A stretch of DNA of 64,000 nucleotides from a virus (IMGVR_UViG_2778261571_000004); one strand, 5' to 3'; positions 731 through 62,002 are shown, counted from the stretch's first letter. The notes: a model not told the origin generated them from the sequence alone. Translations and numbers: made by a program.

Positions 731-823
731 GTTGAATATGCTCCTTGATTTGGCGGGCTATCCTTGCCCGCCATTAAGTAAATACTTACCTATTTTTACC
801 GATATAAAATTTTTTTTCCACCA

Positions 824-3800
824 TCACAGACGGCCAATTCTTACTCGTAAGACGTTGTTATCGTCATAAACGTCAATCCGCTGACCATTTATAACCAATC
901 GCCCATTGCCGCCGCTATTACCGTTGATCTCAAGCGTTCCATTTTTGCCGAACCGCCATCCAGATCTACCGCTAACAAAATTGGTAGATTGCAGATCGCC
1001 TACTTTTGCATTGGTGATTGTGCCATCCTTGATATACGCTCCATTCATATAGGCGATACTGTTTTCGATAACAAATGGCGTTGTGATCTTCCCGTTAACA
1101 GAGTTGACCAAACCAAACCTGTCCGCCTGAACCAAAAACTGAGATAGCCCAGTGGTGTCGATACCAAGCGCAATACCAGCAACATACTTCTGCCCTCCGC
1201 TCGTTGAAGTTTCCATTTTCAACGTCCACGCGGTTGACACTTTTTTGTTGGTATCAGCAATAGCTGTTGCCTGCTGTTGAATTGTCGCGGTATTTCCATC
1301 CACCTCTGCTTTCAGAGTATCGATTCGCCCACTCAGAGCATTATCTGCCTGCGTTCTCGCTGTCGTTTCAGTTGTTACCGCCGCGGAAATGTTGGCTGCC
1401 GTTTGAGACTCTAAGTTTGTGATTTGAGTCGCCAATGCAGCATCTTGCTCTGTACGCGTTTTCGTTTCGGTTGCTACAGCCGCTTTAATATCCTCTTTGT
1501 ATTGAGAGGTCAGCTTGGTGATCTGAGACGACAACGCCGAGTCAGCATCAGTTCGAGCCTGCGTTTCAACTGCAACGGCCGCACTAATATCTTTCGCTGT
1601 CTGTGCTTTTAAACTTGAAACCTCTTTTGTTAAAGCGGTATCACCATCTGCACGAGCCGTTGTTTCTCTGGCAAGAGACGCCTCGAGATCATTAGCTTTT
1701 GCTGTAAGAGACGTAATCTGGGTAGACAATGCACTATCGGCATCAGTCCTTGCTTTTGTCTCTACAGCAACCGCTGCGGCAATATCAGTTCCGGTTTGTG
1801 CTCGCAGGCTGTTAATTTCTCGTGAGAGCGCCTGGTCAGCACTTGCTCTGGCCTCCTGCTCCTGAGTGATGGCAGCGGATATATCACCGTCAACCTTTGA
1901 CTGAAGCTGGTTTATTTGTTTGGCTAACGCAGAGTCCCCGCTTGCTCGGGCCTCCTGCTCACTACGTATTGCAGCAGAAATATCATCATCAACCTTTGCC
2001 TGAAGTTGGGTGATCTGGCTTGCCAGAGCCGAATCTTCCGTTGCTCGGGCTTCTTGCTCTTCCTTAATAGCTGCGACGATATCGTTGCTTACTTTCGACT
2101 CAAGCTGAGTGATCTGTGTCGTCAGAGCTTCATCGGCAGATGTACGAGCCTCCTGCTCTGTACTAATCGCCGCGCTGATATCTCCTTCAAACTTAGATTG
2201 CAGCTGAGTGACACGCTTTGCCAACGCTTCATCGCCATCGGCACGAGCGGTGGACTCTTCCAGAATACTGGCCTTAATGTCTTCGCCAATTTCTACGCGA
2301 ATTTCCTCAACCTTCGTGGCCATTGCAGACATATCATCAGCAAAGGTTTTCTGTGTTGTTGCGATCTTCGCGTTATTGACCATCTGCTTGTGCTGGTCTT
2401 CATCTTGACGAAGAGCCAGGTCAATATTTGTTTTGGCTAACGCCTCAATGTTCGTAGTCAGTTCTGCACTGGCACGATCGACCTCTGCAACCGTCTTTTT
2501 CATTTCTTCAACGGCAGCGGAGCTTTCCTCTACCGTTGACTGCAACACTTCCAGTTGTTTAGCGTTTGCAGCATCGCCTTCAACACGAGCCTCGCTTTCC
2601 TTAGCAATAAGAGCCGCCGCTTCATCTCTTGCAGCCTTTATTGCCTCGACTGTATTAGCGAGAGCTTTATCGTGTTCAGATACGGTGTTTTCGATTTCAA
2701 CAATTGCAGCATCAGTAGCATCAATTTTTTCAAACGCTTCATTGACCTTGTCAATCGTTGCCGAAACCTCACCTTTAAGCTCGGTTTGTGCGTTCTCCAA
2801 AGCATCGCTACGCTCGTTGAATTTTATTTCAAAATCCGCGAGGTTATCGCTGAACTGCTTATCTAATTCAGCTATATCTTCCTTAACGTCGTTTACCGCC
2901 CCCTCCAAAGATTCGACGCTCTGGTTGATATGCTCATTTAACTCGTCAACTGCTTCTTGAGAGGCTTTGCTGTTGATGTCCTCAAGCAGAGCCTGACCAA
3001 GCTCGGAAGATGTAATTTTGCCAGTCAGGAACGACAGTACATCGCGAGTTGTCGCCTCTGTACCCAAGTTTGAGTTCGGAGGACTTAACATACCTCGCTT
3101 GTTCGATGCTCGAACCCAGTAATACCACGTTTCGCTATCCCCAAGACCAGCATGTGTAAAGGTGGTGCTTGCAGACTCTGCGATCAGTTTCGCCGTATCC
3201 AGATTGTTGGTCTGGGATGCGTAAACATTAATGTGATCAAGGTCTACCGAATCTGGATTAACCCAATTCAGTATCACATTACGATAGTCTCCAACGGCCG
3301 TTAATGACGTTGGGGAATCCGGCGGTGTCATTGTGCCCAACACCTGATAAACGGTACTGATAATCTCTGTTTTTTTACCGTTGAATGAAACCGCATACAG
3401 TTGGAAGTCGTAGCGTCCATTCTCCGCGACATTAACGATTTCGTATTGCTCTTCGGTTACACGCGCCGATTGCCAGTTCGATACATTGTTTTCATCAGAA
3501 CGTCGCCAACTGATCCAATACTCTGGAGATTTCCCTTCCCATGTTGCAGTCAGTTTTACTGACAGGTTGCCAGGGCTTGAGAGATAAGTCCCTTCGGTGA
3601 TTTGCAAATTAGACGGCTTGGAGTAAGTCGGGTCCAATACCGTCGTATTTTGCGGGATAAGCGTTGCACCATTGTCGATCGCCTCATATTTAGACGGATT
3701 GTTCTCAACAGCGGTGATGTCAAAGCTACCCGGCGTTTCCCCCTGCGCGATGTTAACGATGCGAACGCGCATAGGTTCGAGGTCTGGTTCTGTAATAGTC

Positions 3801-5557
3801 CAGACGCCGTTCAAAACAGGCGTTTCAGCCGAAGACAGGGATTTTGAAAACGTAACTTTTGTTATATTTTCGCCAGTTTCAAGAACATCGCGTTCAACGA
3901 TTTTGCCTTCATGATTCAGTATTCGAATAAAGCAGCCGCCTTTGGCTAACGACACCGGCGCATCGAGTGTGACGCTGTTTTTGGTAAACGCCACAATTCG
4001 ACCTGAGTTACGTTTGCCTGCGCGATATTTGTTCTGAATCAGAACGGTTTCACCAGGCATCAGAAATGACGCGTCTAAGCCGGCAGTAAATGTAATTACA
4101 TCCGACTCCATTCTGGCGGTATATAAAAGCCACAAACCAACTCGGTGAGCCTGCCCTCGGCTTGTACAGCCAAATGCTACGACTTCTGTCTTACGCTCAC
4201 CATAACGGCGCATTGCGTCCTGATCTTCAACGTACTCGATGTTTTGCTTATAACCGTCCTCCTTGTTGTTGTAGGTTACGAGCGCAACGGATGGGCGATC
4301 TTTACGCGCAGAACCTTTATAGGTAAACAATCCATCTTTGACGTTAGAGTTGGTAAACATCATTACCGGATCTGATGGGCTATCCTGCATGATGTTAACC
4401 ATCCCACCAGCCCAAAACACCATGCCGCGGAATGCTCCGGCAATATCCTGAATTAGCCGGTATGCGTCCTGTCGACTGGTGATCTGCGTATTGATTGCAA
4501 AGCGTTTCTCTTTGCCACCAAAGCCATCATCGACCTCTTCGTCACAATATCGACCAATCTGGTACAACTGGCCAAGGTCAATCATAGATTCCGACACATA
4601 CTGACCAAGGCCATATCGAGCATTGGTCAGCAAATCAAAGAGAATCCACGCGGGGTTCGAAGAAGACAACAGCTTAAAAGTGCCATCCCATACCCCAGCG
4701 TAAGTGTTACTGGACTCGTTATAGTTTGAAGGTACTCGAATTTTTAGGCCACGCACCAGATAAGAGCGAGATGGCATGGTGCTACCAAACTGCTCAGAAT
4801 TAACCTTCAGACCCACCAGCACAGAGTTTGGGTAGTTCATCGGTGTATCTACAATCTCACCTATTGAGTCCACCCATGTATCGTTATAGAGATACTGGCT
4901 GCTGTTATCATCGGTAATACGGACTACACGAACCTTGTACGCGCGTCCAGGCTTAGGCAGCTTCAGCTCGTAGCTACGGTAATAAACGCCGGTCTTCTTT
5001 GCTGTTAGCTTAATGCCAACGCTTTTTTCACCTTCCGCGACCACATCTACAAATGTTGAGTCGCCATTTGCTATCTGGAACTTGTACTCAACAGTCGTAC
5101 CGTTCGTGTCACCAGTTTTTTTATCTATGCTTCGCAAAGAAGGAAACTTCATGATGACACGAACCCGATCAGCTTCATCGTTATCGATTGAAACCGTTAC
5201 ATAATGTGTTTTTTTTAACTGGATATTGACGGATTTAGGCGTTTCAACGAAATCAAAGCCAGACATTGGAGTCTGGTCTTGTGAACCGTCGCGAAAATCC
5301 CATGTGATTCCGCTGAAGTTGGAGGAACCGTCTTCATTTACAATCGGCAGATCGTCGATAAAAATAGATCTTGCGCCATTTACTAAGCCGCCAATTACCC
5401 CTTCCCCAAGAAGATCGAGGATAGCGGCCATTGCACGAGAATTTACGGTATCGTCGGCTTCAACCGGTGTACGGCTGGAGCTTTTGCTGCTTTTTTTACC
5501 ACCCGCACCTACAATAAACAGCGGTAACTTTTTCTTCTTGAACTGTTCCATGTTCAA
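824..5557 (-). CDS. Central tail fibre / host specificity protein (lambda J family) with long coiled-coil repeat insert
   Basis: 1577 aa; N-terminal two-thirds and the region near residue 1450 (QKYVAGIALGIDTTGLSQFLVQADRF) align by eye to lambda gpJ; residues about 845-1430 are alanine-rich coiled coil with about ten 33-aa repeats (DISAAIxxEQEAR...QLQSKVDG). Confidence 0.85.
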   Translation of the reverse strand: MNMEQFKKKKLPLFIVGAGGKKSSKSSSRTPVEADDTVNSRAMAAILDLLGEGVIGGLVNGARSIFIDDLPIVNEDGSSNFSGITWDFRDGSQDQTPMSGFDFVETPKSVNIQLKKTHYVTVSIDNDEADRVRVIMKFPSLRSIDKKTGDTNGTTVEYKFQIANGDSTFVDVVAEGEKSVGIKLTAKKTGVYYRSYELKLPKPGRAYKVRVVRITDDNSSQYLYNDTWVDSIGEIVDTPMNYPNSVLVGLKVNSEQFGSTMPSRSYLVRGLKIRVPSNYNESSNTYAGVWDGTFKLLSSSNPAWILFDLLTNARYGLGQYVSESMIDLGQLYQIGRYCDEEVDDGFGGKEKRFAINTQITSRQDAYRLIQDIAGAFRGMVFWAGGMVNIMQDSPSDPVMMFTNSNVKDGLFTYKGSARKDRPSVALVTYNNKEDGYKQNIEYVEDQDAMRRYGERKTEVVAFGCTSRGQAHRVGLWLLYTARMESDVITFTAGLDASFLMPGETVLIQNKYRAGKRNSGRIVAFTKNSVTLDAPVSLAKGGCFIRILNHEGKIVERDVLETGENITKVTFSKSLSSAETPVLNGVWTITEPDLEPMRVRIVNIAQGETPGSFDITAVENNPSKYEAIDNGATLIPQNTTVLDPTYSKPSNLQITEGTYLSSPGNLSVKLTATWEGKSPEYWISWRRSDENNVSNWQSARVTEEQYEIVNVAENGRYDFQLYAVSFNGKKTEIISTVYQVLGTMTPPDSPTSLTAVGDYRNVILNWVNPDSVDLDHINVYASQTNNLDTAKLIAESASTTFTHAGLGDSETWYYWVRASNKRGMLSPPNSNLGTEATTRDVLSFLTGKITSSELGQALLEDINSKASQEAVDELNEHINQSVESLEGAVNDVKEDIAELDKQFSDNLADFEIKFNERSDALENAQTELKGEVSATIDKVNEAFEKIDATDAAIVEIENTVSEHDKALANTVEAIKAARDEAAALIAKESEARVEGDAANAKQLEVLQSTVEESSAAVEEMKKTVAEVDRASAELTTNIEALAKTNIDLALRQDEDQHKQMVNNAKIATTQKTFADDMSAMATKVEEIRVEIGEDIKASILEESTARADGDEALAKRVTQLQSKFEGDISAAISTEQEARTSADEALTTQITQLESKVSNDIVAAIKEEQEARATEDSALASQITQLQAKVDDDISAAIRSEQEARASGDSALAKQINQLQSKVDGDISAAITQEQEARASADQALSREINSLRAQTGTDIAAAVAVETKARTDADSALSTQITSLTAKANDLEASLARETTARADGDTALTKEVSSLKAQTAKDISAAVAVETQARTDADSALSSQITKLTSQYKEDIKAAVATETKTRTEQDAALATQITNLESQTAANISAAVTTETTARTQADNALSGRIDTLKAEVDGNTATIQQQATAIADTNKKVSTAWTLKMETSTSGGQKYVAGIALGIDTTGLSQFLVQADRFGLVNSVNGKITTPFVIENSIAYMNGAYIKDGTITNAKVGDLQSTNFVSGRSGWRFGKNGTLEINGNSGGNGRLVINGQRIDVYDDNNVLRVRIGRL

Positions 5558-5569
5558 AAAAATCCTTGT

Positions 5570-6163
5570 TTACATTAGCTGGTCAATCGTGATTGAAGAA
5601 CTCACAACCTGTGAGCCAACCAGAATTTCCTCGCCGTAGATAAGTTGTACTGGGTTGCCCTGGTTTTCTGTATTTTGAGGGCCGTCGAAATAATAAGAGT
5701 TCGAGTTATCTGCCTGTCTCACACTTTCGTTAGTGGCTTGCGGCGATATGATTTGTGATATGCCGCCCATCATCAGTGACAAACCGAGAGGGGCAAGAGC
5801 GGGCAAGCCAAAAAAAGATGCCACCAATAAAGTGGCTCCAACAACCGTCTGAAACCACCCAAAAGCAGATCCGCCACTTCCTCGCGGAACAGGGGTAATG
5901 CGAATTTTGGCAATGTTTTCAGACTGCCCCATCATCTGATATTCACTCTCGTCCACAGACCACTTGTGGCCCTGTTTATTGGTGATCTGGATGTGGTATC
6001 TGTCATAGGTTTTGATATTGCGCTTCATCCATGCTTTAAAACCAGGCTTGTTGGCCTCAATTAAATCCAGAGCCTGTTTTGTATTGCGCACCTTTAGATG
6101 CCAGTGGCGGCCAAAATGTTTGGCCATAGGGCCGCCAAGCTGCACATGAACTAACTCAGACAC
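5570..6163 (-). CDS. Tail assembly protein (lambda I family)
   Basis: 197 aa; hydrophobic central segment and C-terminal ...QLIYGEEILVGSQVVSSSI resemble lambda gpI; position between K-like and J-like genes. Confidence 0.75.
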   Translation of the reverse strand: MSELVHVQLGGPMAKHFGRHWHLKVRNTKQALDLIEANKPGFKAWMKRNIKTYDRYHIQITNKQGHKWSVDESEYQMMGQSENIAKIRITPVPRGSGGSAFGWFQTVVGATLLVASFFGLPALAPLGLSLMMGGISQIISPQATNESVRQADNSNSYYFDGPQNTENQGNPVQLIYGEEILVGSQVVSSSITIDQLM

Positions 6164-6975
6164 GTCTCATCTCCCTTGAGCAAGTCTCTGTGACGCAAGT
6201 GATGCGTCGTATGTTTCTGATACATTCCGCCGTAATAAGCACGACAACTAAGACGGTCGATCTGGTGATGAAGAATCATTCCATCGCCGATATAAACCGC
6301 GCAGTGATCTGGCATTTTCCCGTATTGAATAAAGAAGACGTCCCCACGTTGAGGCTCTGTTCCAGGCGCAAGCCGTACCAATCCCTCGTTTCGGTAGTTC
6401 TGGTCGAGAATGTCGTTATCGCCGGTGTACCACGATGGAATATGCAGGTGTGCGTTCGGGTTAAGCTCGACGTTAAACTCACGCTTCAAATAGTCCCGAC
6501 ACAACATCCAGCAATCGAATACGCCAAATACATACGGTCTACCCAGGTATGGCATTTCGAAACCATCAGGTGTGATCACATTCATCTCGCTAAAATGGAA
6601 AGGGGCATCTCCCTCAACATTCTTGCGAATAGCCAGAATCATCCACGGAACTTCCGTCGCTTCACAGCCTGCACGATCGGCATCAGATGCTTCTGCTGAT
6701 TCATCAGTATGTGAATGCCAGATTGCGATTACGTCACCTGCATCCTCCGCCGCCATAATGTCGTCAACGTGCATTACAAAAGTGTTCTGCGGGTTCTCCG
6801 AAACATTTTGCGCTTCCATAAAGCGATATTTGTCGCCATTAGTTCTCACCAGAAAGCCACACGCTTCATTAGGGTAGCGATTTATGGCGCAGAGATAGAT
6901 TTGCTGCATAACATCAGAGCCAAGCTCAGGGATTGCTTTATTACCCATATCGCGTAGCTCCAATAAACCCGCCAA
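6151..6975 (-). CDS. Tail assembly protein K-like (MPN/JAMM plus NlpC/P60 domains)
   Basis: JAMM motif HSHTDESAEASDAD and NlpC/P60-like Cys/His segment (DCWMLC ... HCAVYIG); synteny L-K-I-J; true start may be internal (MGNKAIPE...). Confidence 0.75.
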   Translation of the reverse strand: MAGLLELRDMGNKAIPELGSDVMQQIYLCAINRYPNEACGFLVRTNGDKYRFMEAQNVSENPQNTFVMHVDDIMAAEDAGDVIAIWHSHTDESAEASDADRAGCEATEVPWMILAIRKNVEGDAPFHFSEMNVITPDGFEMPYLGRPYVFGVFDCWMLCRDYLKREFNVELNPNAHLHIPSWYTGDNDILDQNYRNEGLVRLAPGTEPQRGDVFFIQYGKMPDHCAVYIGDGMILHHQIDRLSCRAYYGGMYQKHTTHHLRHRDLLKGDETCLS

Positions 6976-7672
6976 AATGGATCACTCCGTTGGCAAAATA
7001 ATTCCGACGCGCATTACAGGCGTCATAACGTTTTGTGCAGTAATCAGCACCAGACATAGACGTCTGCTGGTTATTTTTGTCGAAATATGGACCGGTATAG
7101 CCGCATTCTGGCCCTCGGTATTTCCACGGGCAGGTGTTTTTAATGATCTGACGATACGGCAGTTGCACCCCCATCAAATCGAACACACTGGACAATTCAA
7201 ACTCGACAACCTGATGAGTTTCGAGAGTTTTCTGTTCGATAAACCACATTTCATCCGGGAAATGTTGGTTTGGATCTGCTGTTGGGTTGCCGTCTTTAAA
7301 ATTAACGGCATCGAGGAAGCGAGCCAGCGTCATCTTGCGAATAATGCGGCAGCCAACAAGATCGTCGTTCGCCTGAACTTCCGCAGAGACGGTTCCGGCA
7401 AAGTTCGATACCTGAATTTTTGGACGTGGCAACGTTCCCTGGCCAGTTTTGTCAAAGCCTGATGCTTTGATTGGCCACGGCTCGTATGTCACTCCTTGCC
7501 AGACGACCGGTTGCATCAGTTCGTTTGTTCCGGCGTGGAAGAATAACTTCCCCCCTGAAGTTGTGTTCGACATATCCAGTACGAACAACTCAATGAGTGC
7601 AGAGGGAGATAAGCTCTGAATATCAGCTTTAATTCCCATTGTTTCATCCTTGAAATAAGTAGGCGCTAACAT
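6941..7672 (-). CDS. Minor tail protein L-like
   Basis: 243 aa, Cys-rich C-terminus, synteny between M-like and K-like genes. Confidence 0.75.
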   Translation of the reverse strand: MLAPTYFKDETMGIKADIQSLSPSALIELFVLDMSNTTSGGKLFFHAGTNELMQPVVWQGVTYEPWPIKASGFDKTGQGTLPRPKIQVSNFAGTVSAEVQANDDLVGCRIIRKMTLARFLDAVNFKDGNPTADPNQHFPDEMWFIEQKTLETHQVVEFELSSVFDLMGVQLPYRQIIKNTCPWKYRGPECGYTGPYFDKNNQQTSMSGADYCTKRYDACNARRNYFANGVIHFGGFIGATRYG

Positions 7673-7721
7673 CCTGTCAGCGCCACAATGATAGTAAATT
7701 AGTACTTACTTATCCAGATAC

Positions 7722-8057
7722 TTAAGCCTCAAATACTTGTCTGAATGTAGCAGTTAAGACACAGTACCCCTGATATCGCTTGACCGTATGACTGTCACAT
7801 ACAACTACAATCCGTTTTCCTCTTGGATTAACCCAATAGAACGACTCAACGCCTGCTCGCTCAGTCAGGAAGTCATCGATTGCATTAATTTCGTTGTATG
7901 ATCTGGTAAAGGTTAACGACCATTCTTCTTTAATACGATTAAGACCTTGAGCCTGTCGCTGCTCGTAGTCATCACCAAAATTAAGTACCGTTACATTCGG
8001 TTTTACGCTTTTTTCAGATTCGTAATCTGGATACCAATTAAACGTTTGTCTTTCCAT
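7722..8057 (-). CDS. Minor tail protein M-like
   Basis: 111 aa, similar length and pattern to lambda gpM, immediately downstream of tape measure gene. Confidence 0.75.
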   Translation of the reverse strand: MERQTFNWYPDYESEKSVKPNVTVLNFGDDYEQRQAQGLNRIKEEWSLTFTRSYNEINAIDDFLTERAGVESFYWVNPRGKRIVVVCDSHTVKRYQGYCVLTATFRQVFEA

Positions 8058-8072
8058 CTCACATCCTTGTGA

Positions 8073-8094
8073 GACTGCCCCGGTCGGGGCAGTC
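8073..8094 (-). terminator. GC-rich hairpin between tape measure and M-like genes (attenuator or processing site)
   Basis: gactgccccggtcggggcagtc perfect stem-loop in 42-nt intergenic gap. Confidence 0.35.
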
Positions 8095-8099
8095 GATAG

Positions 8100-11000
8100 T
8101 TAGTTACGTTGAGTGTTTGGGTTGAGTGATCCGCCAGGGCGTTTCTCTTGAGCGATAGTCTCAAGCGCGATTGCTTTCATCCGTTGAGCGGCATTGTTCC
8201 ATATGCTTTCTGTATCGCCGGATTCAGTTGTGCTACCGTCACTATGGACGTTGATCTCAATTGATACCGGAGAAAGAACATTTCCTCCTCCACTCATACC
8301 ATCGGTACTGAGCGTTACAGGGATTGTTCGACCATCAGGCAATGGAACATACGCCTCATTCATATCGCCTTCCCCAAACAACGCCAATTGAGGTGAGTTG
8401 GCGATACCGCCTTTCTGGTATGCCCGGAGCGGGATCACGCCGTCTTTTCCGAATATGCCACCATTTGCAAACTTCGGAATTGCAGGAATACCATTCGTGC
8501 CATCGGCAGCAGAACTGGTCAGATTGTTGAACCCGGAAGTTGAGCCAGAAGAACCGGACATCAATCCATCGAATCCACCACCAGCCCATACTGAAACCAA
8601 ACCAGATGCAACTGTCGCGCCGAAATTCAACCACTTATTACCAGAGCCGGAAGCATTAGCTCCAAGCATTGCAAACGCGGCAGACAGCGCGCCGGTAACA
8701 GAACTGAGGTTCTGCATCGAGAAGATGGAGTCCTTCACGGCTTTTGTCTCGGCATCTTTGGCTTCAGTGCTATCAAATAGCCCTGATACCCAGCTACCAA
8801 TCGCATTTGTTGCAGTGCCAATTGCGCTGGTGGTCTGCTGTGTTGTTTGCCCCAATCCAGTTACCGAACTGGACGTCTCCTTCGTGGCTTCTCCTACCGA
8901 CTTGTCGCCATTAACAGTGTTGCTTATGCGCACACCTTGATTGGCAACGGCGGAAGCAACCCCGGTGAGCAAATTACCACTCTGTGAACTACCAGCTGCG
9001 GTGGTTCCCATCCCCAACATGTTCATTAGAGGCAGCGTGATCTGCGACTTCACGACCATATTGGTGATATCTTTCAAAATGGACTGAGACAGGCTGGAGA
9101 AGCTCATCTTCCCGTTAATAACGAAATCAGTCAGGACATCAGTTAAGCCACTAAACAAATCAGTCCAGGTGCTTTCGATCTGCTCTGCCAGGTTTTCGTA
9201 TTCCAGTGCCAACTTCTGCGTCGCAGTCCCCGTCTCTTTAATAAGCGCGGTATTGCCAGCAGCAATAAGTTGATTGATCTTTTTATCGAACAACTCAATC
9301 TGGCTTTGTGAGGCTGTGCCTGACTCAATCGCAGCTTTACGTAAATCCATCAACGCTTTAAGGTTGCGATTATAGGTTTCTTCGAAATCAGCAACTTTCT
9401 CTTCACGAGACGGCGTATAGCCAGCACTAATAATGGAATCCGCCTCCGGTGCCCAAGTGGAGATCATCTGCTCAACATTGCGGCGATTAAACATCTCGCG
9501 ATATTCAGGTGTCGCATTTTTGAGGTCTTCAAGACGTTTTTTCGCCTTGTCGATCATCTCTTGAGTGATGAACTCGTTAGGAACCGCATTAGCCAAATCT
9601 GTCAGCGATTTCGTTGTATCGCGAAGAGACTGATCAAACGATACCGTAGCCTTAGAGCTTTCACCCATTTGCCCCATAAGCTGATCGGCTTTGTCCAGAG
9701 CCTTCTGATATCCGGCCGCCAGTTTCTGTTGCGCTGCCTGTTCTTTCTTTGCTGCTCTCTCGGCTGCTTTTGCGGTACGGTTTGCTGCCTTATCTGCTGC
9801 TTCTGCATCAAGTTCACGAGCTTTTGTCAGAGTCTTAATTACTGCGATGCGGTCATTTTCTGACAACTGCTCTAATTTCACATCACCGTAAATTTTCTTC
9901 TGTCTTAATTGCTCCTTGAGTTGTCGAGGCCCAACAACAGGTTGACCTTGTAAGTCGTATAATGCGGTACCATCGAGATTGACTCTTTGATACCTTTTAG
10001 AGTCCATCTGCTGTTTCCAAAAACCAGTCATAGTTTTGGAATTAGCATCAACTGGTGTGCTTGAAAACTCACCAATTTTACCGCCATTAATAGAAACCAA
10101 GCCGTCCCCAGCTTTCACGCTAAGACTGATTTCAAGGTTCTCCATCCCCTCTTTTACAATCTTCAAAGCCTCGGTGGTGGCGTCTATCTTTGTCTGGGCT
10201 TCTTTTTGCCCCTGCATATCGTTCGACTCTTGGGCCTTTTTGAGCTCTTCAGAGTATGTGGCGAGTTCACCAAGCCCCTTCTCATAACGAGCTTTATACC
10301 CTTTGAGTTTTTGCTCGTCGGCCTGGGCGTACAAACGTCCAAGTTCTGCGTTGTTTTCTGCCCTTAATTTGCTTTTTTCGTGGTCGGACAAGTCCGACCG
10401 CGCGGCAATTTTCTCATTGCTTTTGGTGAGTCTTTCTATCTCTTTGGCGACTGAGGCTATTAATGCATTCCCTTTCTGGTTGGCCGCATCAATACCCTCT
10501 CTATATTTCTTAGTAATGCTTTGTTTGATGGTTTCGGCTATGCCGCCATCAAGAGCTTTGGCGACTTCCTCTCTTTCTTTTCGCGCTTTTTCCAGTTTCT
10601 TTTTGCTGTCGTCAACATCGACACCAACTTCGTACGGTCCCGTGTATGCTGAAAAATGCAAGGTTTTGCCAGTCTCGACTTCTTTTTCCAGTCTGGAGAT
10701 CTCTCGATCTTTCTTGCTCAGTTCGCTTTCCAGCATCGCGCGATCTGCCTGCGTCATCGCTTCAGGGATTTCTCTGACTTTGTTTACAACGTCTTCGACT
10801 TTCTTCCTCAGACTGCTCATGTGCCAGATCAGCGTCGAAACCGCCGTTACCGCAGCAGTAAAGAAGAACCCTATAGGGTTTGCAGCCATGAACGCAGTCA
10901 AGCCAGCAAATGCATTGCGAATAGCAAAAATCAATGCAGGGATGGTAGATAGTCCCATGCGTGAGGCTCGATTGAAGCGTTTAACGGCTGTCGTCGCAAG

Positions 11001-12683
11001 ATCAAATGTCCCCTGTATTGTGGTGGATACCGTAGCAAAGGTGCTGATCATGCTATTAGCAGTGCCAATGACACCAGAAATCCCCGATTTGAGGAGTCTG
11101 AAGGCCATCGTGACAGCGACGGCTTTGCCGAAAGTGACAACAAGCTCCTGGTTTTTAATCAGCCATTTCGCCAGGTCACGCAAACCATCAATAGCCGTCG
11201 TCAATCCGCTTCCCAACGAGTGAGCAAAAGATGTACCCTCTGCGCTATTCATCAGGGAGGTGAGTTCTTTCATTCCCTCTCTTAAAGAAGACAAATAACC
11301 AGTCTGGCCTACTTTGTCCGCGAACAGCGTAAAGGCTGTCTTCATTTGCGCCAACGTACCGGTAAATGTGTTCATCATTTCGGACGCAGCTCCCTCGTTC
11401 TGCATCTTCAACTCTTTGAACATAAGTGCCAGTGCGTTTTTGGCTTCTACCGTTCCAGATGCTACAGCTTTAGTTAACTCGCCCATTGTCAGACCAGCAG
11501 CCTTGGCCATTGCGTTCATTGCTGTCGGAATCGCCTCACCTAATTGCTGGCGAAGCTCTTCCATCGATACAACCCCTTTACCAGACATCTGCTGAACAGC
11601 AATGGATGCACGCTTCAGAAGTTCGCTATCACCACCAAAACGAGCAACGGAGTCCACCAGCGCCTTCAGAGAACCATCGGTTGGATCTAAGCCAGCAGAA
11701 CGAAACTTCACGAAGGAGTCTGTTAACGCCTGCATCGCGAACGGCGCATTTTGAGCCATGTCTACGATGTACTTCATATCATCAGCGGCAGCCTGGCCCG
11801 GGTTGGACTTCTCCTTATTCAACCCTCGAAGCATCACCCGCATACGTTCCATTTCGGCCGCAGCTTCAACAATAGGCTTCTGCCACCCAAACATGATGTC
11901 AGTAACCGTTCTGGCTGCATCTCCGATCTCGCCAAGCAGAAAAATGTTGCCACGAAGGCCAGAGAACATACCTCCTTCGTTACTTTTACCGCTATGGCCA
12001 GAAGCGCCGCTACGCCGCCCGCTACCACCATCGCCACTTCCAGATGTACGAACGCGTACCGGCTTGCTAATCAGTTGCTGACGTCCGATAACTTCGTCCA
12101 TCTGCTCACGAACCTTTTTCAGTCCCTCGGCAGCCTGACTCGTTGTGACACCCCAATTACTGAGTCGCTTCGTCGTGGTATTAAGGCGCGTATTCATGCC
12201 ACTCACGGACACAGAGGCTTCTTTGACCTCCGTACCAAAGCGGCTTGCGCTTTTGCTTGCATAGGTCGCCCAATCAGAGAAATCATTTAGCTCTGATTGC
12301 ACTTTACGTAATGACGCGGTGAGTTTATCTACTGAAGAAGTTGTCGTATCGACGCGCTCAATCAGGGCTTTAAGACCAGAATTGAGGCTGGTGATGTTGC
12401 CACGCATTTTACGCGTAGCATCTGAAGCAAGCTCAAAACCGGCAGCTACATCCTGTAGTTTATCTGCCGTAGAATCGAGCTTGCTTTCCAGAACGCCAAT
12501 GATACGGGCGACCGAACCCAAAGAGCGTTCAAAGGTTTGGATTTTTTGAGCAGGCTTTGTTACCTGCTCACCAAATCGAGTAAGCAGTTTTCCCGCACGA
12601 TCGATTGACGCTGTAAACTGTTTGTCTTCCAGCGACAGGATAAACTCTACGTTTTGTGACATTCCCTTGTCATCCTCTGCCAA
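8100..12683 (-). CDS. Tail tape measure protein
   Basis: 1527 aa, long alpha-helical/coiled-coil protein with Gly-rich and hydrophobic segments, located between chaperone genes and M-like gene. Confidence 0.85.
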   Translation of the reverse strand: MAEDDKGMSQNVEFILSLEDKQFTASIDRAGKLLTRFGEQVTKPAQKIQTFERSLGSVARIIGVLESKLDSTADKLQDVAAGFELASDATRKMRGNITSLNSGLKALIERVDTTTSSVDKLTASLRKVQSELNDFSDWATYASKSASRFGTEVKEASVSVSGMNTRLNTTTKRLSNWGVTTSQAAEGLKKVREQMDEVIGRQQLISKPVRVRTSGSGDGGSGRRSGASGHSGKSNEGGMFSGLRGNIFLLGEIGDAARTVTDIMFGWQKPIVEAAAEMERMRVMLRGLNKEKSNPGQAAADDMKYIVDMAQNAPFAMQALTDSFVKFRSAGLDPTDGSLKALVDSVARFGGDSELLKRASIAVQQMSGKGVVSMEELRQQLGEAIPTAMNAMAKAAGLTMGELTKAVASGTVEAKNALALMFKELKMQNEGAASEMMNTFTGTLAQMKTAFTLFADKVGQTGYLSSLREGMKELTSLMNSAEGTSFAHSLGSGLTTAIDGLRDLAKWLIKNQELVVTFGKAVAVTMAFRLLKSGISGVIGTANSMISTFATVSTTIQGTFDLATTAVKRFNRASRMGLSTIPALIFAIRNAFAGLTAFMAANPIGFFFTAAVTAVSTLIWHMSSLRKKVEDVVNKVREIPEAMTQADRAMLESELSKKDREISRLEKEVETGKTLHFSAYTGPYEVGVDVDDSKKKLEKARKEREEVAKALDGGIAETIKQSITKKYREGIDAANQKGNALIASVAKEIERLTKSNEKIAARSDLSDHEKSKLRAENNAELGRLYAQADEQKLKGYKARYEKGLGELATYSEELKKAQESNDMQGQKEAQTKIDATTEALKIVKEGMENLEISLSVKAGDGLVSINGGKIGEFSSTPVDANSKTMTGFWKQQMDSKRYQRVNLDGTALYDLQGQPVVGPRQLKEQLRQKKIYGDVKLEQLSENDRIAVIKTLTKARELDAEAADKAANRTAKAAERAAKKEQAAQQKLAAGYQKALDKADQLMGQMGESSKATVSFDQSLRDTTKSLTDLANAVPNEFITQEMIDKAKKRLEDLKNATPEYREMFNRRNVEQMISTWAPEADSIISAGYTPSREEKVADFEETYNRNLKALMDLRKAAIESGTASQSQIELFDKKINQLIAAGNTALIKETGTATQKLALEYENLAEQIESTWTDLFSGLTDVLTDFVINGKMSFSSLSQSILKDITNMVVKSQITLPLMNMLGMGTTAAGSSQSGNLLTGVASAVANQGVRISNTVNGDKSVGEATKETSSSVTGLGQTTQQTTSAIGTATNAIGSWVSGLFDSTEAKDAETKAVKDSIFSMQNLSSVTGALSAAFAMLGANASGSGNKWLNFGATVASGLVSVWAGGGFDGLMSGSSGSTSGFNNLTSSAADGTNGIPAIPKFANGGIFGKDGVIPLRAYQKGGIANSPQLALFGEGDMNEAYVPLPDGRTIPVTLSTDGMSGGGNVLSPVSIEINVHSDGSTTESGDTESIWNNAAQRMKAIALETIAQEKRPGGSLNPNTQRN

Positions 12684-12939
12684 ATATTTGCATCAGTTGC
12701 TCTTTGGCGTCAGGGTCTGCCTTATCCTGGCTTGGATCGTAGACTTTATCTGTTACGACTGGTCTTCCAATCCTGAGTTGCAAACCCTCCATGAACGCCT
12801 TCACAGCCTCGCCATCCGCCTGGGACGCACGAGCGACTTGTAAGTTGCGGACATCCTCTTCCGCACGCAGACGGTCTATATTGCGACTGAGCATCCAGAA
12901 CATCGTGAGAGGAACGTTCAGTAGCTCTAATGGCGACAC
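12670..12939 (-). CDS. Tail assembly chaperone, T-like frame (possible -1 frameshift extension of upstream G-like ORF)
   Basis: Own translation shows this frame stays open upstream across the G-like stop at 13020, in the -1 frame relative to G; mirrors lambda G/GT arrangement. Confidence 0.4.
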   Translation of the reverse strand: MSPLELLNVPLTMFWMLSRNIDRLRAEEDVRNLQVARASQADGEAVKAFMEGLQLRIGRPVVTDKVYDPSQDKADPDAKEQLMQIFGRG

Positions 12940-13019
12940 GGCGTAGTGAGCAACTACACGACTGAAATAGAATCCGAGATCTATTGAGACGGTCCTTGTC
13001 CCGGATTCATCGCGGGAAA

Positions 13020-13337
13020 TTACTTTGCCCCTTCGCCAGCCGCTTTTTCGTTTTCTTCATCAATCACTTCCATAGCGAAGGTGAAGATCTGCTGGAGTTG
13101 CGGAACAGTCAGTTTTTCAAGAACTTCGTCAGGTACTGAAGGGATAACCTTACGAACCAGATCTGCATAAGCTGTCACTTGCTCAACAGGAGACATGTTC
13201 ATGAGATCTTTGCCTTCCATCTGCTTGATGGAAACAAAGAGGCCGACGGTCATTTCAACGATGGGATATTCTTTGCCACCAAATTTGATGCTTTTTTTCG
13301 GCGGCAGAATGGAGTCGAGATCGAGTAATTTGGTCAT
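13020..13337 (-). CDS. Tail assembly chaperone (G-like)
   Basis: 105 aa acidic protein directly upstream of tape measure gene and downstream of major tail gene. Confidence 0.5.
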   Translation of the reverse strand: MTKLLDLDSILPPKKSIKFGGKEYPIVEMTVGLFVSIKQMEGKDLMNMSPVEQVTAYADLVRKVIPSVPDEVLEKLTVPQLQQIFTFAMEVIDEENEKAAGEGAK

Positions 13338-13363
13338 GGTTTAAATCCTTTTAAACTCATACA

Positions 13364-54798: not shown

Positions 54799-54943
54799 GT
54801 GGACTCCATCCAGTGTCAGAAAGAGTTGCGGCTGGCGATTGCCAGCCGCCTTTCTCGTTCCATCCTGGAACTGTGTCTTACCGACACATTGTCATCCTGA
54901 CGCTGATAAGATACATGATTTAAAATGATAGGTAAACACTTAC

Positions 54944-55537
54944 TTACCACTTGTTATAAACAAAACCAATATCTTTCTTGTGAGGCATATCTGCTGCTGA
55001 AAAAGCTGCGATCTTCGCGAGTCGATCACATATTTCATTTTCACGATGCCCGGCGTGACCTTTAACCCACTTCCAGCGAACATTATGTCGACTTGCGGCC
55101 TCATCCAGACGCTTCCACAGATCAACATTCTTTACCGGTTTTTTGTCAGAAGTCATCCATCCATTGCGTTTCCACCATTTCATCCACTGTGTCATGCCGT
55201 TTTTCAGATACTGGCTATCAGAGTGCAAAATAACGTTGCATGGATATTTCAAACGCTCCAGCCCGATAAGTGCGCCCATCATCTCCATGCGGTTATTGGT
55301 GGTGCTATGAAAACCATCTGAGAACTCGCGTTCCTCACCACGATACTGGAGAACGATACCGTAACCGCCCGGGCCACCCGGATTTTTAAGGCAAGAGCCA
55401 TCACTAAAGATTTTCACGGTTTTGAGCTGGGGATTGAACTCTACGACAGGCGTTGTGGGATTGGTGCGGGGAGAATTTTTGTTTTTGGCTTTTTTGCGAG
55501 TTTTTGCTTGCGATCGGGCTGGTGTCTTCGTCGTCAT
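54944..55537 (-). CDS. rnh: Ribonuclease H (RNase HI family)
   Basis: Strong pattern match to RnhA ([17 protein letters not shown] ... HSDSQYL ... [17 protein letters not shown]); start set at MTTKTP with AGGAG RBS; ORF track 54944-55588. Confidence 0.8.
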
Positions 55538-56119
55538 ATAAACTCCTGAATCAAGCGCCGCGCCGATTTTTTCCTCGCGCGTGCGCACACGCGTGCGTGT
55601 TAATAATTATTAAAATAAACAAATTACTTCCCAGAACAGGTTTTTATAAACCTGAACTGAACGAACGAAGTGAGTGAAGTTCACCTCGAACGAAGTGAGA
55701 GGTTGTCTTTTCAGGTAATACTCTCCCAGGGAGGTGAGTATAAAATTCCTCACCAACCTGGTCGTTTCATAACCTGAAAAGCTATGGTCTAAGTCTACTG
55801 CCAGCTTAGACTTGGGAAGTTATGGATGACAGCACCCCAGAACCGAGATCTTCCCACACTTTATGAAGGGGAGTACTGGATTCAACCTCTCGAAACACCC
55901 CAGACTCGACAATCATAAAGTGACCCTTGTCTCTGCTCACTTTGGTTCCCCCTTCCCCGACACCTATACGGCACCGGTTCTACGCTGGTAGTGAGCTTTT
56001 TTAAACCTGACGCCAGTGACGCTTACCCCCACCCATCAGGTCGAGCCTCCAGTCTACGACTGGAAACTATCATATCTTAGCACTTACAATTCACTTTATG
56101 AATAGTTTGTACTTATCTA

Positions 56120-56374
56120 TCATTGTGATTGATTATTTTCTCGACCATGTAGTTGAACATTCAAGGCAAACACCTCATTGATCAACTCACCTAAAAGCTG
56201 TTCAACAAGTTCGCGATGCTCGCCAAGATGCAAGCACTTAATTGCCCACTCGTACAAGTTGAAAGCCTGCTCACGATCTTTCATCATTTCACGAGCCTGG
56301 GCCAGAAAATCGCTCTCTACGAGCGCAACGACATTAGTCGGGTATGACATGTTGGTTTCCTTAAAGTGGTTCAT
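56120..56374 (-). CDS. Hypothetical small protein
   Basis: 84 aa ORF downstream of inverted-repeat element copy 2. Confidence 0.3.
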   Translation of the reverse strand: MNHFKETNMSYPTNVVALVESDFLAQAREMMKDREQAFNLYEWAIKCLHLGEHRELVEQLLGELINEVFALNVQLHGRENNQSQ

Positions 56375-56454: not shown

Positions 56455-56515
56455 CAGCCTGCTTCCGTATATTAATAATTAATATGTAGTTATTTATATA
56501 TACAGAAGCAGGCTA
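56455..56515. repeat. Long inverted-repeat element, copy 2
   Basis: agcctgcttccgtatat ... atatatacagaagcaggct, same arms as 23208-23272. Confidence 0.6.
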
Positions 56516-57138: not shown

Positions 57139-57164
57139 CGATAGGTAAGTGATTACCTATTTTT
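57139..57164. promoter_or_regulatory. Palindrome, motif family 1 (TAAGTA-n-TACTTA type)
   Basis: cgataggtaagtgattacctattttt, 10-35 nt upstream of dam-like start. Confidence 0.4.
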
Positions 57165-61966: not shown

Positions 61967-61980
61967 AAAAACCTCACAAA

Positions 61981-62002
61981 GATAAGTAATTACTTATTCA
62001 TC
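61981..62002. promoter_or_regulatory. Palindrome, motif family 1
   Basis: gataagtaattacttattcatc, 15-36 nt upstream of thyA start. Confidence 0.4.

Follow-up and report, generated by a model that had tools for sequence, protein, structure and literature searches.

What are the palindromes that recur in the intergenic gaps of this phage DNA, and what recognizes them? A reading of the sequence alone (below, the sequence-only reading) had described variants of TAAGTA...TACTTA in many gaps, and suggested either a promoter element for a phage-specified transcription factor or an RNA processing signal. The DNA that we analyzed (64,000 nucleotides, called the window) is part of an E. coli phage-plasmid that resembles SSU5 and Cyrano, and is 99% identical to plasmid NZ_CP182176.1. 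The window alone contains dfrA51, metG, apbC and a type I restriction-modification system as cargo. Phage-plasmids of the SSU5/pHCM2/pMT1 type are found widely in Escherichia, Klebsiella, Salmonella, Enterobacter, Yersinia and Acinetobacter, and bring resistance and fitness genes with them. Their silencing as plasmids and their switch to lytic growth are essentially undescribed, and the literature that we searched contained nothing on the TAAGTA...TACTTA motif, on SSU5/pHCM2 promoters or on regulation of the SSU5 type.

A 26-bp palindrome beside lytic genes

The palindrome family is real, and its unit is a conserved site of 26 bp. The window has 12 copies with the core ATAAGTAAGT/ACTTACTTAT, where fewer than 0.5 are expected by chance. 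All ten positions listed in the sequence-only reading carry the motif. To these we add 19683-19708 and the weaker 56099-56124. The consensus is A-w-R-ATA-R-GTAAGT/ACTTAC-Y-TAT-Y-w-T (the slash marks the center), in which each arm consists of 4-bp units in tandem (nAGT nAGT). Sites were aligned by a Gibbs-type procedure in place of fixed-spacing palindrome models; these centered on the best inverted repeat, and the 4-bp tandem in each arm made their registers inconsistent. The variable spacer of 2 to 4 nucleotides reported earlier is an effect of register among these units.

Several counts demonstrate the enrichment. Exact TAAGTA-N2-6-TACTTA occurs five times in the window (0.01 expected), and TAAGTANNTACTTA with at most two mismatches has 19 matches at 13 loci, where 1.58 +/- 1.26 are expected and no shuffled sequence has more than 6. 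The 7-mer TAAGTAA/TTACTTA is found 12 times in 8.4 kb of intergenic sequence and three times in 55.6 kb of coding sequence. A weight-matrix scan, which had been proposed as a check, revealed both enrichment over background and a bias to intergenic regions. When the matrix was built solely from 17 sites in Klebsiella phage pJN2-26, it picked out these same 12 sites (0.47 matches expected in Markov-shuffled sequence). Of the 13 window matches that reach 18 bits, 12 are intergenic, where intergenic sequence makes up 13% of the window (binomial P = 3e-10), and random sequence as AT-rich as intergenic regions gives 0.005 matches. A match at 56474-56499 and a similar one at 23226-23251 were rejected as members of another, larger inverted repeat.

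Eleven of the 12 copies are intergenic, the remaining one being inside the 3′ end of the portal gene, and all adjoin genes of lytic functions only. As stated earlier, they occur on both sides of metG-apbC and sometimes next to GC-rich hairpins. The matrix scan of the window found no site in the 27-33 kb leftward maintenance block, nor in the stretch of cargo genes that includes metG, apbC and hsd. A location 10-35 nt upstream of start codons, claimed for the family in general, applies to only four sites (portal, ParB-like, Dam and thyA), whose centers are 19.5-26.5 nt upstream of the start. The others are 52-140 nt upstream, often immediately after the preceding stop codon.

Sites in the window

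In the tail region, the site at 770-795 (28.8 bits) has an exact TAAGTAAATACTTA and lies between the stop of a tail gene (824) and the tail-fibre gene. A GC hairpin (752-772) then follows on the minus strand, and the SSU5 orthologue is at L004:21933. The site at 7690-7715 (24.0 bits), a variant with a longer center, is located between the genes for tail protein M and minor tail protein L. It overlaps a sense sigma-70-like TGGATA-17-TATCAT (7716-7688), a hairpin comes next (7662-7684), and orthologues are at L004:15581 and L007:3613. Upstream of a 248-aa gene with an Ig-like domain, the site at 14192-14217 (24.9 bits) has a perfect 16-bp core, GTAAGTATATACTTAC, and a sense TTGAAT-18-TATACT (14228-14199) that is kept in SSU5 and Klebsiella.

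In the head and packaging region, the site at 17767-17792 (20.7 bits) immediately follows the stop of the major capsid gene and immediately precedes an intrinsic terminator (17748-17764, minus strand). This order of stop, motif and terminator is the same in SSU5, Klebsiella and Acinetobacter. The site within the portal gene (19683-19708, 30.9 bits) is 108 nt upstream of the start of a DUF6651 gene, and forms the spacer of the best sigma-70-like match of the late region (TTGAAA-17-TATGAT, 10/12, 19712-19684). It is identical in SSU5 and nearly so in Klebsiella. The site at 21190-21215 (26.1 bits) takes up the entire 26-nt gap between the TerL and portal genes, and overlaps both the stop codon of TerL and the ribosome-binding site of portal. 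No promoter is recognizable in this gap. Its orthologues are at L004:2027 in SSU5, L006:40576 and, in Acinetobacter, L013:26007. A site with a degenerate right arm (26710-26735, 24.0 bits) occurs in the divergent gap between a ParB-like gene and a DEAD-box helicase gene, with its center 26.5 nt upstream of the ParB-like start and orthologues at L005:46495, L006:34773 and L013:19365 (Acinetobacter).

A terminator directly precedes the weak site at 36328-36353 (18.3 bits), and a 131-aa gene lies downstream of it. The left arm of this site provides the -35 hexamer of a conserved promoter-like TTGTAA-17-TAGAAT (36349-36321), and the orthologous place in SSU5 has TTGTAA-17-TAATAT. The site at 54924-54949 (30.1 bits), right after the rnhA stop and 138 nt upstream of the next gene, has as its orthologues the top-scoring sites of SSU5 and Klebsiella (34.7 bits). 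A weak or degenerate site follows the stop of a 76-aa gene (56099-56124; 20.9 bits, or 17.9 with the Klebsiella-only matrix).

Upstream of the Dam methylase gene, the site at 57139-57164 (27.7 bits, center 22.5 nt from the ATG) overlaps the -10 and predicted +1 of a promoter, TTGCCA-17-(TG)nAAAAAT (57187-57159). By alignment, this promoter is kept in three genomes, downstream of a conserved terminator. The site at 61980-62005 (25.3 bits), upstream of thyA in the thyA-dfrA operon, is situated 35-45 nt after a conserved terminator (62051-62069). In SSU5, the thyA site has CTGACA-17-TAATAT, with the -10 at motif positions 0-5. A degenerate match right after the stop of a pyrophosphohydrolase gene (62115-62140, 12.8 bits) aligns with a clearer one in SSU5 (L005:19056, 20.4 bits) and with L006:9618 in Klebsiella (15.8 bits).

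Conservation in related elements

Salmonella phage SSU5 and Klebsiella phage pJN2-26 have the same sites in orthologous places. These sites are kept at about 80% genome identity while their flanks diverge. In alignments of the gaps upstream of Dam and thyA, the conserved blocks are the motif and the terminators, and they are the only ones in the thyA gap.

A distant relative, the Acinetobacter plasmid NZ_CP035046, has about 28 intergenic sites in the 100 kb examined, with the same architecture and another sequence. The core is ATCAGTCAGT/ACTGACTGAT, such that A has become C in each 4-bp unit (CAGTCAGT/ACTGACTG). These sites occupy orthologous places, namely the TerL-portal gap, the capsid-to-terminator interval, the region upstream of ParB and the repressor gap. 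Given that the architecture is the same and the sequence has changed, the sites behave as a co-evolving regulon. With 12 copies in the window, about 60 strong ones summed over the three enteric genomes and about 28 in Acinetobacter, the motif has the many (more than 20) dispersed copies expected of a genome-wide operator or stoperator network.

By contrast, the lytic relative Pseudomonas phage nickie has no such motif family in its first 50 kb, although it has the same synteny and the same ParB/ABC/terminase module; ordinary -10-like boxes are found there. A scan of 2.9 million viral contigs yielded 75 matching stretches, many of them on contigs of 60-113 kb and often several per contig.

A candidate repressor

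The positions of highest information in the site are G6T7 and A16C17 (GT/AC), which are 10 bp, or one helical turn, apart. Key bases about 10 bp apart in independent arms are as in the operators of dimeric XRE/Cro-C1 proteins. Based on sequence comparison and a structural model, the binder of the 26-bp sites is most likely a repressor of the CYRAN_45 family. This XRE-type "putative repressor" of 128 aa is CYRAN_45 in phage Cyrano and is encoded at L003:18093-18479 in NZ_CP182176.1, next to the integrase and outside the window. Of the 43 proteins common to the E. coli and Acinetobacter elements, this one alone is a canonical transcription regulator, and it is expressed in a Cyrano lysogen (PMC9928086).

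The Pfam match of this protein (HTH_19) is weak, being below the curated cut-off, and no PDB sequence matches it. Its AlphaFold model (pLDDT 79) has only XRE/Cro-C1 helix-turn-helix DNA binders as its top matches. Foldseek relates it to C.BclI, C.AhdI, HigA, SinR and lambda cI, with target-normalized TM-scores of 0.6-0.8 and weak E-values of 0.015-0.2. The element that carries the sites encodes a plausible cognate XRE protein, albeit one with weak Pfam and Foldseek scores and a gene outside the window.

The predicted recognition helix, GYKN(A/P)NNLSLIKSGK, hardly varies among enteric homologues, although overall these share only 55-70% identity. The Acinetobacter protein, whose element has a different motif, reads GFKRPNVLSMIKSGE at this helix. 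The P0032 lineage, whose recognition helix is YKYQNQVSF, has more TATGTATGTA half-sites in the 20 kb that could be compared; this lineage is not in PLSDB. General divergence could also yield such co-variation of motif and helix.

The repressor gene has a site at its own promoter. In E. coli and Klebsiella, its promoter (TTTACA-16-TAATAT) is directly followed by CGGTAAGnACTTACC, and in Acinetobacter a cognate site is found downstream of its TATAAT. These sites score 13-20 bits, below typical sites.

Homologues of the candidate repressor occur in 865 PLSDB plasmids, nearly all non-mobilizable and, among the matches listed, mostly of about 100-120 kb. In 50,697 phage records, they are found in SSU5-like elements of E. 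coli and Klebsiella only, and the protein is absent from lytic relatives that lack the motif. It is also absent from SSU5, which yet keeps about 27 good sites. SSU5 is a deletion derivative, in that plasmids 93% identical to it carry about 3 kb more at this place, including the integrase. Its sites would fit a recent deletion, and equally a binder or function that SSU5 still has.

Two other proteins were considered and rejected. HTH187 (L003:9004-9567) is a HicB antitoxin (CYRAN_50) and is absent from Klebsiella. An FljA-like protein, which is discussed below, is absent from the Acinetobacter element, and the arms lack an RNA signature.

A model for the plasmid state

We estimate a probability of roughly 55% that the palindromes are double-stranded DNA operators for the element's own dimeric helix-turn-helix protein, most likely the XRE repressor. 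Both the choice of this protein as the binder and repression as the mode of regulation are inferred; the link to the XRE protein draws on phyletic pattern, predicted fold, the autoregulatory site and the co-variation of motif and helix. In the lysogenic plasmid state, the repressor would occupy about 25-30 sites and keep about 100 kb of phage genes silent, in the regions for replication, nucleotide metabolism, packaging, head, tail and lysis. Sites that overlap a lytic promoter, whether at its -35, spacer, -10 or +1, would prevent transcription from starting there. In tight gaps between genes that are transcribed together, sites could serve as roadblocks or as extra anchoring, in the manner of mycobacteriophage stoperators. 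By means of the site just downstream of its own -10 hexamer, the repressor might also limit its own synthesis. However, plain operators would not call for the order of stop, motif, terminator and start, which is kept from Acinetobacter to E. coli, and this counts against the model. So do the low scores at the repressor's own promoter, the weak E-values of the fold matches and a promoter-like polarity of the Acinetobacter sites that is described below.

If the repressor model is true, loss of the repressor region would account for the fact that SSU5 behaves as a lytic phage. A family of 26-bp putative operators together with a named candidate repressor offers a direct experimental handle. Immunity groups may be predictable from sequence (the enteric AAGT type versus the Acinetobacter CAGT type), and the motif could be used as a simple sequence marker for the boundaries of transcription units in such elements.

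Overlap with promoter-like sequences

Sense sigma-70-like matches overlap 24 of 59 sites (about 40%), compared with eight in antisense. With 57 of the 62 strong sites in the three enteric genomes being intergenic, the family combines short gaps and lytic promoters as a network of repressor sites would. The remaining sites have no sigma-70 match by the simple criterion that we used, and some leave no room for any promoter. Where there is a match, its -10 begins at motif position -2/0, 13, 19, 22 or 27, which amounts to at least five registers. These several registers fit repression better than activation.

The sites could nevertheless be positive promoter elements, bound by an activator of the element or read as a non-standard promoter, that turn on middle and late lytic genes. 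We consider this unlikely. The late promoters of P1, which have a -10 hexamer and an inverted repeat in the spacer and are served by Lpa, are comparable. The excess of sense over antisense overlap is in favor of an activator, as is one common class of sites in which TTGAAA and TATCAT/TATGAT are 17 bp apart and the palindrome coincides exactly with this spacer. Many Acinetobacter sites are followed at a fixed distance, in the direction of the gene, by TATACT/TAnnnT, and their centers are asymmetric in the sense direction, so that these sites have a promoter-like polarity. Past the thyA and Dam terminators, the motif is the sole strongly conserved block before the ribosome-binding site. Finally, SSU5 grows lytically without the XRE repressor, yet keeps its sites.

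On the other hand, activators normally need a fixed geometry, and the register between palindrome and hexamer differs by up to 29 bp among sites. If the motif's own TATCAT were a general -10, transcription would start 7 nt past it at Dam, thyA, portal and others, and the ribosome-binding sites now present in this start-proximal class would fall outside the RNA; we therefore rejected this -10 for that class. We found no candidate activator or sigma factor common to all motif-bearing genomes, and the 50 kb of lytic nickie with the same gene order lack the family. The proposal of a promoter element for a phage-specified factor thus survives in part. The sites have the anatomy expected for a dimeric protein and about 40% of them overlap promoter-like sequences, but the varied registers, the promoter-less sites and the absence from a lytic relative disfavor an activator- or sigma-specific element relative to a repressor operator.

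A bolder and quite improbable reading is that the motif is a dual-use cassette of promoter and operator, about 30 copies of which wire the whole 100-kb lytic programme through one module. The symmetric ends (TATCAT / ATGATA) and A-tract flanks would then be core promoter parts of most lytic units. The motif and the terminator hairpin following it would act as a switch, in which transcripts started at the cassette escape and those reading through from upstream stop. The module would co-evolve with a single small helix-turn-helix protein or, alternatively, be read by some lytic-phase factor retained in SSU5. A-tract asymmetry could not be used as a mark of orientation in the enteric sites, as their flanks are symmetric (A at -1 versus T at 24).

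DNA site or RNA hairpin

An AU-rich hairpin in the mRNA, serving either as a cleavage site for RNase III or E or as the target of a translational regulator, is an explanation to which we give little credence. Many sites are located between a stop codon and the next ribosome-binding site, and about 14 of 56 intergenic sites are centered 10-27 nt before a start codon, sometimes over the Shine-Dalgarno sequence. A possible regulator is the FljA-like protein (window 31369-31890), whose family represses translation of the fliC mRNA. This protein, which also has a weak Hfq-like match, belongs to Flag1_repress over its full length (E = 1e-80), and all three enteric genomes encode it, SSU5 among them. 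Proteins of the FljA family act post-transcriptionally (PMC2652032).

However, a structured RNA would keep its pairing by compensatory or G·U-tolerant changes, and this is not what we observe. The degenerate pair 5/18 is A-T in 16 cases, G-C in 12, G-T in 11 and A-C in 13, as expected for independent arms, and pair counts over the sites reveal no compensatory changes. On the transcribed strand, G·U-type mismatches between the arms are about as frequent as A·C-type ones (61 versus 55). What is conserved across sites and genera is the sequence itself, and not pairing. Given arms that are independent, without covariation or G·U bias, and key bases 10 bp apart, the site looks like that of a dimeric DNA-binding protein and not like an RNA hairpin.

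Other observations also oppose an RNA element. At the conserved promoters of Dam, thyA, the repressor gene and site 36328, the predicted +1 falls within or past the palindrome, and transcripts from there would be missing one arm or both. The palindrome matches no Rfam family. Moreover, the Acinetobacter element has the motif family but no FljA-like gene, and its Hfq-like protein has no detectable similarity to the FljA-like protein. The suggestion of an RNA processing signal is therefore not upheld.

Partition sites and repeats as improbable alternatives

Two ParB-like proteins are encoded at 25348-26696, and the palindromes might be dispersed centromere or silencing sites for them. Dispersed palindromes in plasmids and phage-plasmids have precedents in the SopB sites of N15 and the KorB operators of RK2, both proteins have a ParB N-terminal domain, and a site occurs just upstream of the ParB-like gene in every lineage. 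Nonetheless, this idea is highly improbable. The ParB-like/ABC-ATPase module is a conserved core upstream of the terminase in nickie, a lytic phage that is not a plasmid, so in the 50 kb examined a ParB homologue is present without the site family, contrary to what holds for ParB-parS and KorB-OB. For both proteins, Pfam detects no domain other than the ParB N-terminal one. The elements also carry a separate partition gene of the ParA type at another place, and the site upstream of ParB is among the most degenerate.

A binding site for a host factor, or a palindromic repeat of the REP or MITE kind that is selfish or without function, would be short, AT-rich, intergenic and multicopy as the family is, but can practically be dismissed given the orthologous positions kept while flanks diverge, the concerted change of all sites in Acinetobacter and the many matches on large viral contigs, often several per contig; to our knowledge, there is also no likeness to consensus sites of E. 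coli regulators.

Comparison with known systems

Returning to repressor operators as the preferred reading, we find the closest analogues in the C1 operators of P1, the CIRs of phiC31 and the stoperators of mycobacteriophage L5.

P1 is likewise a phage-plasmid, whose master repressor C1 has many operators scattered over about 100 kb, before genes for replication, a methylase and other lytic functions. Dispersed operators before such genes are the likeness to the present element. However, P1 operators are asymmetric and 17 bp long, and C1 is unrelated to XRE proteins. In P1, the late structural genes are controlled through Lpa-dependent late promoters and not directly by copies of the operator, whereas here copies also occur within the head and tail operons.

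The CIRs of phiC31 are palindromic operators in many intergenic copies at lytic promoters, bound by the c repressor, and in these respects resemble our sites. They are 17 bp long and belong to an integrating phage of a high-GC actinomycete host (Streptomyces). The repressor family differs, and the element studied here persists as a plasmid and has a 26-bp site.

XRE/Cro-C1 systems, such as the controller (C) proteins of restriction-modification systems and the 434 and lambda repressors, are similar in the predicted fold, in a palindrome with key bases one turn apart and in the autoregulatory site. Their operators number one to a few at a single locus, compared with about 30 across the genome in the present case, where each arm also differs in being made of two 4-bp units in tandem (nAGT nAGT).

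L5 and its cluster A relatives likewise have one motif about 25-30 times genome-wide, mostly in short gaps and in both early and late operons. Binding of the prophage repressor (gp71) to L5 stoperators silences initiation and elongation (PMC9283540). Those sites are asymmetric and 13 bp long, with a polarity tied to the direction of transcription, and their binder is a monomer that has two DNA-binding domains (PMC9283540). The sites described here are instead 26-bp palindromes, implying a dimer of a small XRE-type protein, and there is no sequence or protein homology; binding here is putative, and a block to elongation would be by analogy. The family is not made up of asymmetric, polar 13-bp sites, its palindrome scoring about equally on both strands, and is thus an analogue of the stoperators and not a member of their class. 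The L5 group offers a parallel to SSU5, since D29 is a lytic deletion derivative of a temperate parent (PMC5712189) and has lost its repressor, as SSU5 has here.

Enrichment and anatomy of the palindrome

The TAAGTA...TACTTA palindromes form a real motif family, and the motif is present at all ten coordinates listed in the sequence-only reading. Exact TAAGTA-N2-6-TACTTA occurs five times in the window (0.01 expected), TAAGTANNTACTTA with two mismatches permitted occurs at 13 loci (1.6 expected), and the 7-mer TAAGTAA is 22-fold enriched in intergenic DNA. Since each arm repeats 4-bp units in tandem (TAAG TAAG TA), many loci can be matched in either of two registers offset by 4 bp.

We aligned 46 sites of the E. 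coli element and Salmonella phage SSU5 by a Gibbs-type procedure and used 41 of them for position counts, which gave a 26-bp palindromic consensus with the halves A-w-R-A-T-A-R-G-T-A-A-G-T and A-C-T-T-A-C-Y-T-A-T-Y-w-T. The ideal core is ATAAGTAAGTACTTACTTAT. Most information is carried by G6T7 and A16C17, which are separated by 10 bp. Klebsiella phage pJN2-26 lay outside the alignment set, and was obtained later and scanned with the resulting matrix. The proposed weight-matrix scan confirms enrichment over background, since a matrix trained on the Klebsiella sites alone found 12 window sites where 0.47 were expected. The claimed intergenic location also holds: with the full matrix, 12 of 13 matches fall between genes, where intergenic DNA makes up 13% of the window (P = 3e-10). 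One of these 13, at 56474, was rejected as a family member, being part of a different, larger inverted repeat, as is a similar sequence at 23226.

Genomic setting and conservation

Escherichia phage Cyrano and E. coli plasmid NZ_CP182176.1, both SSU5-type phage-plasmids, share 97% and 99% identity, respectively, with the window. RefSeq annotation transferred from this plasmid places tail, head, packaging and ParB-like genes at 1-26.7 kb (minus strand), a block including a DEAD-box helicase and a FljA-like gene at 26.8-33 kb (plus strand), small genes and cargo (metG, apbC, type I restriction-modification genes) at 33-54 kb, and nucleotide-metabolism genes at 54-64 kb (minus strand). Lytic-function genes flank every motif site in the window, and the full-matrix scan of the window found no site in the leftward block (27-33 kb) and none amid the cargo genes. 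The hsdS specificity subunit (46643-47890) is just 41% identical to its counterpart in the otherwise 99%-identical plasmid, indicating that restriction-modification specificity was swapped. The rnhA gene (54944-55604) corresponds to one for which the relative's annotation gives a frameshift.

Across the three enteric genomes (the E. coli element, SSU5 and pJN2-26), 57 of 62 strong sites are intergenic. Many sites start 4-25 nt past the stop codon of the gene before. Measured from site centre to the following start codon, 14 sites lie at 10-27 nt, within the 10-35 nt of the earlier description, and about 24 form a second group at roughly 41-72 nt. The GC-rich hairpins said to adjoin some sites were also found: a GC hairpin or intrinsic terminator lies between several sites and the next ribosome-binding site, and the order of stop codon, motif and terminator is conserved behind the major capsid gene. 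Downstream of site 14192, a small hairpin (14160-14190, minus strand) is CGCA-ATGAA-TGCG in the window, and in SSU5 it is GCACC-GTGAA-GGTGC. Given this compensatory change, it may be a true RNA structure.

In E. coli, SSU5 and Klebsiella, the motif occupies orthologous places in the TerL-portal gap, inside the portal 3′ end, after the major capsid gene, upstream of the Ig-like gene, between tail genes M and L, and upstream of Dam, thyA and the ParB-like gene. When the gaps upstream of thyA and Dam are aligned, the motif and terminators stand out as blocks of conservation against a divergent background. Synteny is shared with a distant relative, Acinetobacter baumannii plasmid NZ_CP035046, which has 43 proteins in common with the E. 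coli element. On this plasmid, about 28 intergenic sites of the same architecture lie in the same kinds of places, with the sequence ATCAGTCAGT joined to ACTGACTGAT; relative to the enteric motif, A is changed to C in every 4-bp unit. The motif co-evolves across genera, and a concerted change at all Acinetobacter sites implies a trans-acting factor with altered specificity.

The 18-mer core matches 75 stretches in a viral-contig collection, many of them on contigs of 60-113 kb and often several per contig. E. coli contig ABZCOC010000014.1 has motif sites at 455, 7195, 15495, 17315 and 19008. In this lineage, with a different recognition helix (YKYQNQVSF) in the candidate repressor, most half-sites in the 20 kb examined have TATGTATGTA, not TAAGTAAGTA, which may represent specificity drift.

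Overlap with promoters

In the late region (window 1-20000, tail and head), sigma-70-like matches are strongly depleted (8, where 22.9 +/- 3.7 were expected), terminator-like hairpins are in excess (32 versus 19.2), and three of five gene-strand sigma-70-like matches coincide with motif sites. Among 59 sites in the three genomes, 24 overlap sense-oriented sigma-70-like matches and 8 antisense ones, the motif itself being symmetric. Counted along the motif, the -10 hexamer begins at position -2/0, 13, 19, 22 or 27. The Dam promoter match, TTGCCA-17-TGnAAAAAT, lies downstream of a conserved terminator and is shared by the three genomes. Its end is at motif position 3, which puts the predicted start in the palindrome centre. 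At thyA, the motif follows a conserved terminator by 35-45 nt and abuts the ribosome-binding site. The palindrome at 19683 is the spacer of TTGAAA-17-TATGAT, and the left arm at 36328 is the -35 hexamer. A promoter was not recognisable at other sites, notably in the 26-nt TerL-portal gap.

Repressor operators overlap core promoter elements in variable registers, whereas activator sites normally need a fixed geometry; the overlap observed here therefore fits operators. The suggested promoter element for a phage-specified factor is partly supported by the promoter overlap, but the registers vary as they do in repressor operators. The best-supported reading is that the motifs are genome-wide operators of the element's XRE-type repressor. 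This protein would block lytic promoters in the plasmid state, perhaps also block read-through transcription, and would regulate its own gene. The operator reading does not account for the conserved order of stop codon, motif and terminator, the sites that lack a promoter, the polarity in the sense direction seen in Acinetobacter (a TATACT flank and an asymmetric centre) or the retention of good sites in SSU5. Because of these points, an activator site or promoter cassette is kept as an unlikely alternative.

DNA site or RNA hairpin

At the degenerate pair 5/18, the counts (A-T 16, G-C 12, G-T 11, A-C 13) are exactly those predicted by independence, and pair 1/22 behaves in the same way. Mismatches among 720 arm pairs include 61 of G·U type and 55 of A·C type. 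An RNA processing signal, as previously suggested, is not supported by these data, since a selected hairpin should have arms that co-vary and tolerate G·U on the transcribed strand, neither of which is seen, and an Rfam search of the window gave no family match. Because both arms are conserved, vary independently and have their key bases one helical turn apart, the motif bears the signature of a symmetric protein dimer on double-stranded DNA.

Candidate binder

We screened the regulators of the element for a binder, and infer that the best-fitting candidate is a 128-aa XRE-type protein adjoining the integrase. Its gene (L003:18093-18479, in NZ_CP182176.1) is identical to the Cyrano “putative repressor” CYRAN_45, which is expressed in the Cyrano lysogen (PMC9928086). 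It is the sole canonical transcription regulator among the proteins common to the E. coli and Acinetobacter elements. A total of 865 plasmids carry homologues; nearly all of these plasmids are non-mobilizable, and those listed are mostly about 100-120 kb in size. In a set of 50,697 phage records, homologues were confined to E. coli and Klebsiella SSU5-like elements. The sole matches of its AlphaFold model (pLDDT 79) are XRE/Cro-C1 DNA binders, with weak Foldseek E-values (0.015-0.2). Enteric homologues are just 55-70% identical overall, but their recognition helix, GYKN(A/P)NNLSLIKSGK, is nearly invariant. The Acinetobacter helix is GFKRPNVLSMIKSGE; here Asn is replaced by Arg just as A:T is replaced by C:G in the site, a parallel that is suggestive only. 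In E. coli and Klebsiella, the candidate's own promoter (TTTACA-16-TAATAT) is directly followed by CGGTAAGnACTTACC, and cognate sites lie within the corresponding repressor-gene gap in Acinetobacter.

SSU5 does not have the XRE gene. Plasmids 93% identical to it carry about 3 kb more (L004:41400-43200 in SSU5, tRNA region to cobT), including the integrase-repressor segment, so SSU5 appears to have arisen by deletion, with loss of its lysogeny repressor. It would in this respect resemble D29, a lytic cluster A mycobacteriophage that derives by deletion from a temperate parent (PMC5712189).

The FljA-like protein (window 31369-31890, plus strand) is a full-length homologue of FljA, the “repressor of phase-1 flagellin” (Pfam PF03614 Flag1_repress, E = 1e-80), whose C-terminal part gives a weak Hfq-like match. 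Its gene is present in the E. coli, SSU5 and Klebsiella elements, within a block transcribed opposite to the lytic genes, and was not found in the Acinetobacter element, which instead has an unrelated 179-aa Hfq-like protein. The FljA family acts on mRNA (PMC2652032), and this member might repress translation of the host's flagellin or have phage mRNAs as its targets.

The gene order of Pseudomonas phage nickie, a lytic relative, matches that of the elements, including the ParB-like/ABC-ATPase/terminase module, but no comparable motif family was found in the 50 kb examined, which argues against both ParB-like binders and a core lytic-programme signal. The module (window 22466-26696, minus strand; L008:3383-9423) lies directly upstream of TerS and TerL and encodes two proteins with a ParB N domain, an ABC-type ATPase and a 296-aa protein. 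Its order is the same in the strictly lytic nickie and the Acinetobacter plasmid, so a plasmid-partition role is unlikely, and it may serve packaging or late functions.

Other repeats and regulatory sites

A second palindrome family, AAAACAAnTTGTTT(T), probably the other family of the sequence-only reading, occurs at 23139, 36738, 37222, 39729, 39780, 53308, 54037 and about 34236, usually just downstream of a GATAAT-type -10 box and before small minus-strand genes of unassigned function. SSU5 and Klebsiella also have the family; the Acinetobacter plasmid lacks the exact pattern. The family's layout resembles a sigma-70 promoter combined with a putative operator of a different regulator. The larger inverted repeat, CCTGCTTCCGTATAT...ATATATACAGAAGCAGG with an AT-rich centre, has one copy upstream of the TerS-like gene (23215-23270) and another between Dam and a 76-aa gene (56457-56515). 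It recurs in SSU5 (L005:25018), Klebsiella (L006:15283) and the E. coli plasmid (L003:36061), and may serve as an origin, in packaging or as the target of another regulator.

A LexA-box-like CTGTTTATCCATACAG (43616-43631) just upstream of an S24 peptidase (HumD/UmuD-like) gene (43206-43595) suggests possible SOS control of that gene. Cyrano shows SOS induction (PMC9928086). The XRE-type candidate has no S24 domain, so this induction must take another route.

Relation to known systems

We found no description of the motif or of SSU5-type regulation in the literature searched. Cluster A mycobacteriophage repressors act at stoperators (PMC9283540). Repression by the XRE-type protein, which we infer here, is directly testable. 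The motif set most closely resembles the stoperators of L5, the CIRs of phiC31 and the C1 operators of P1.
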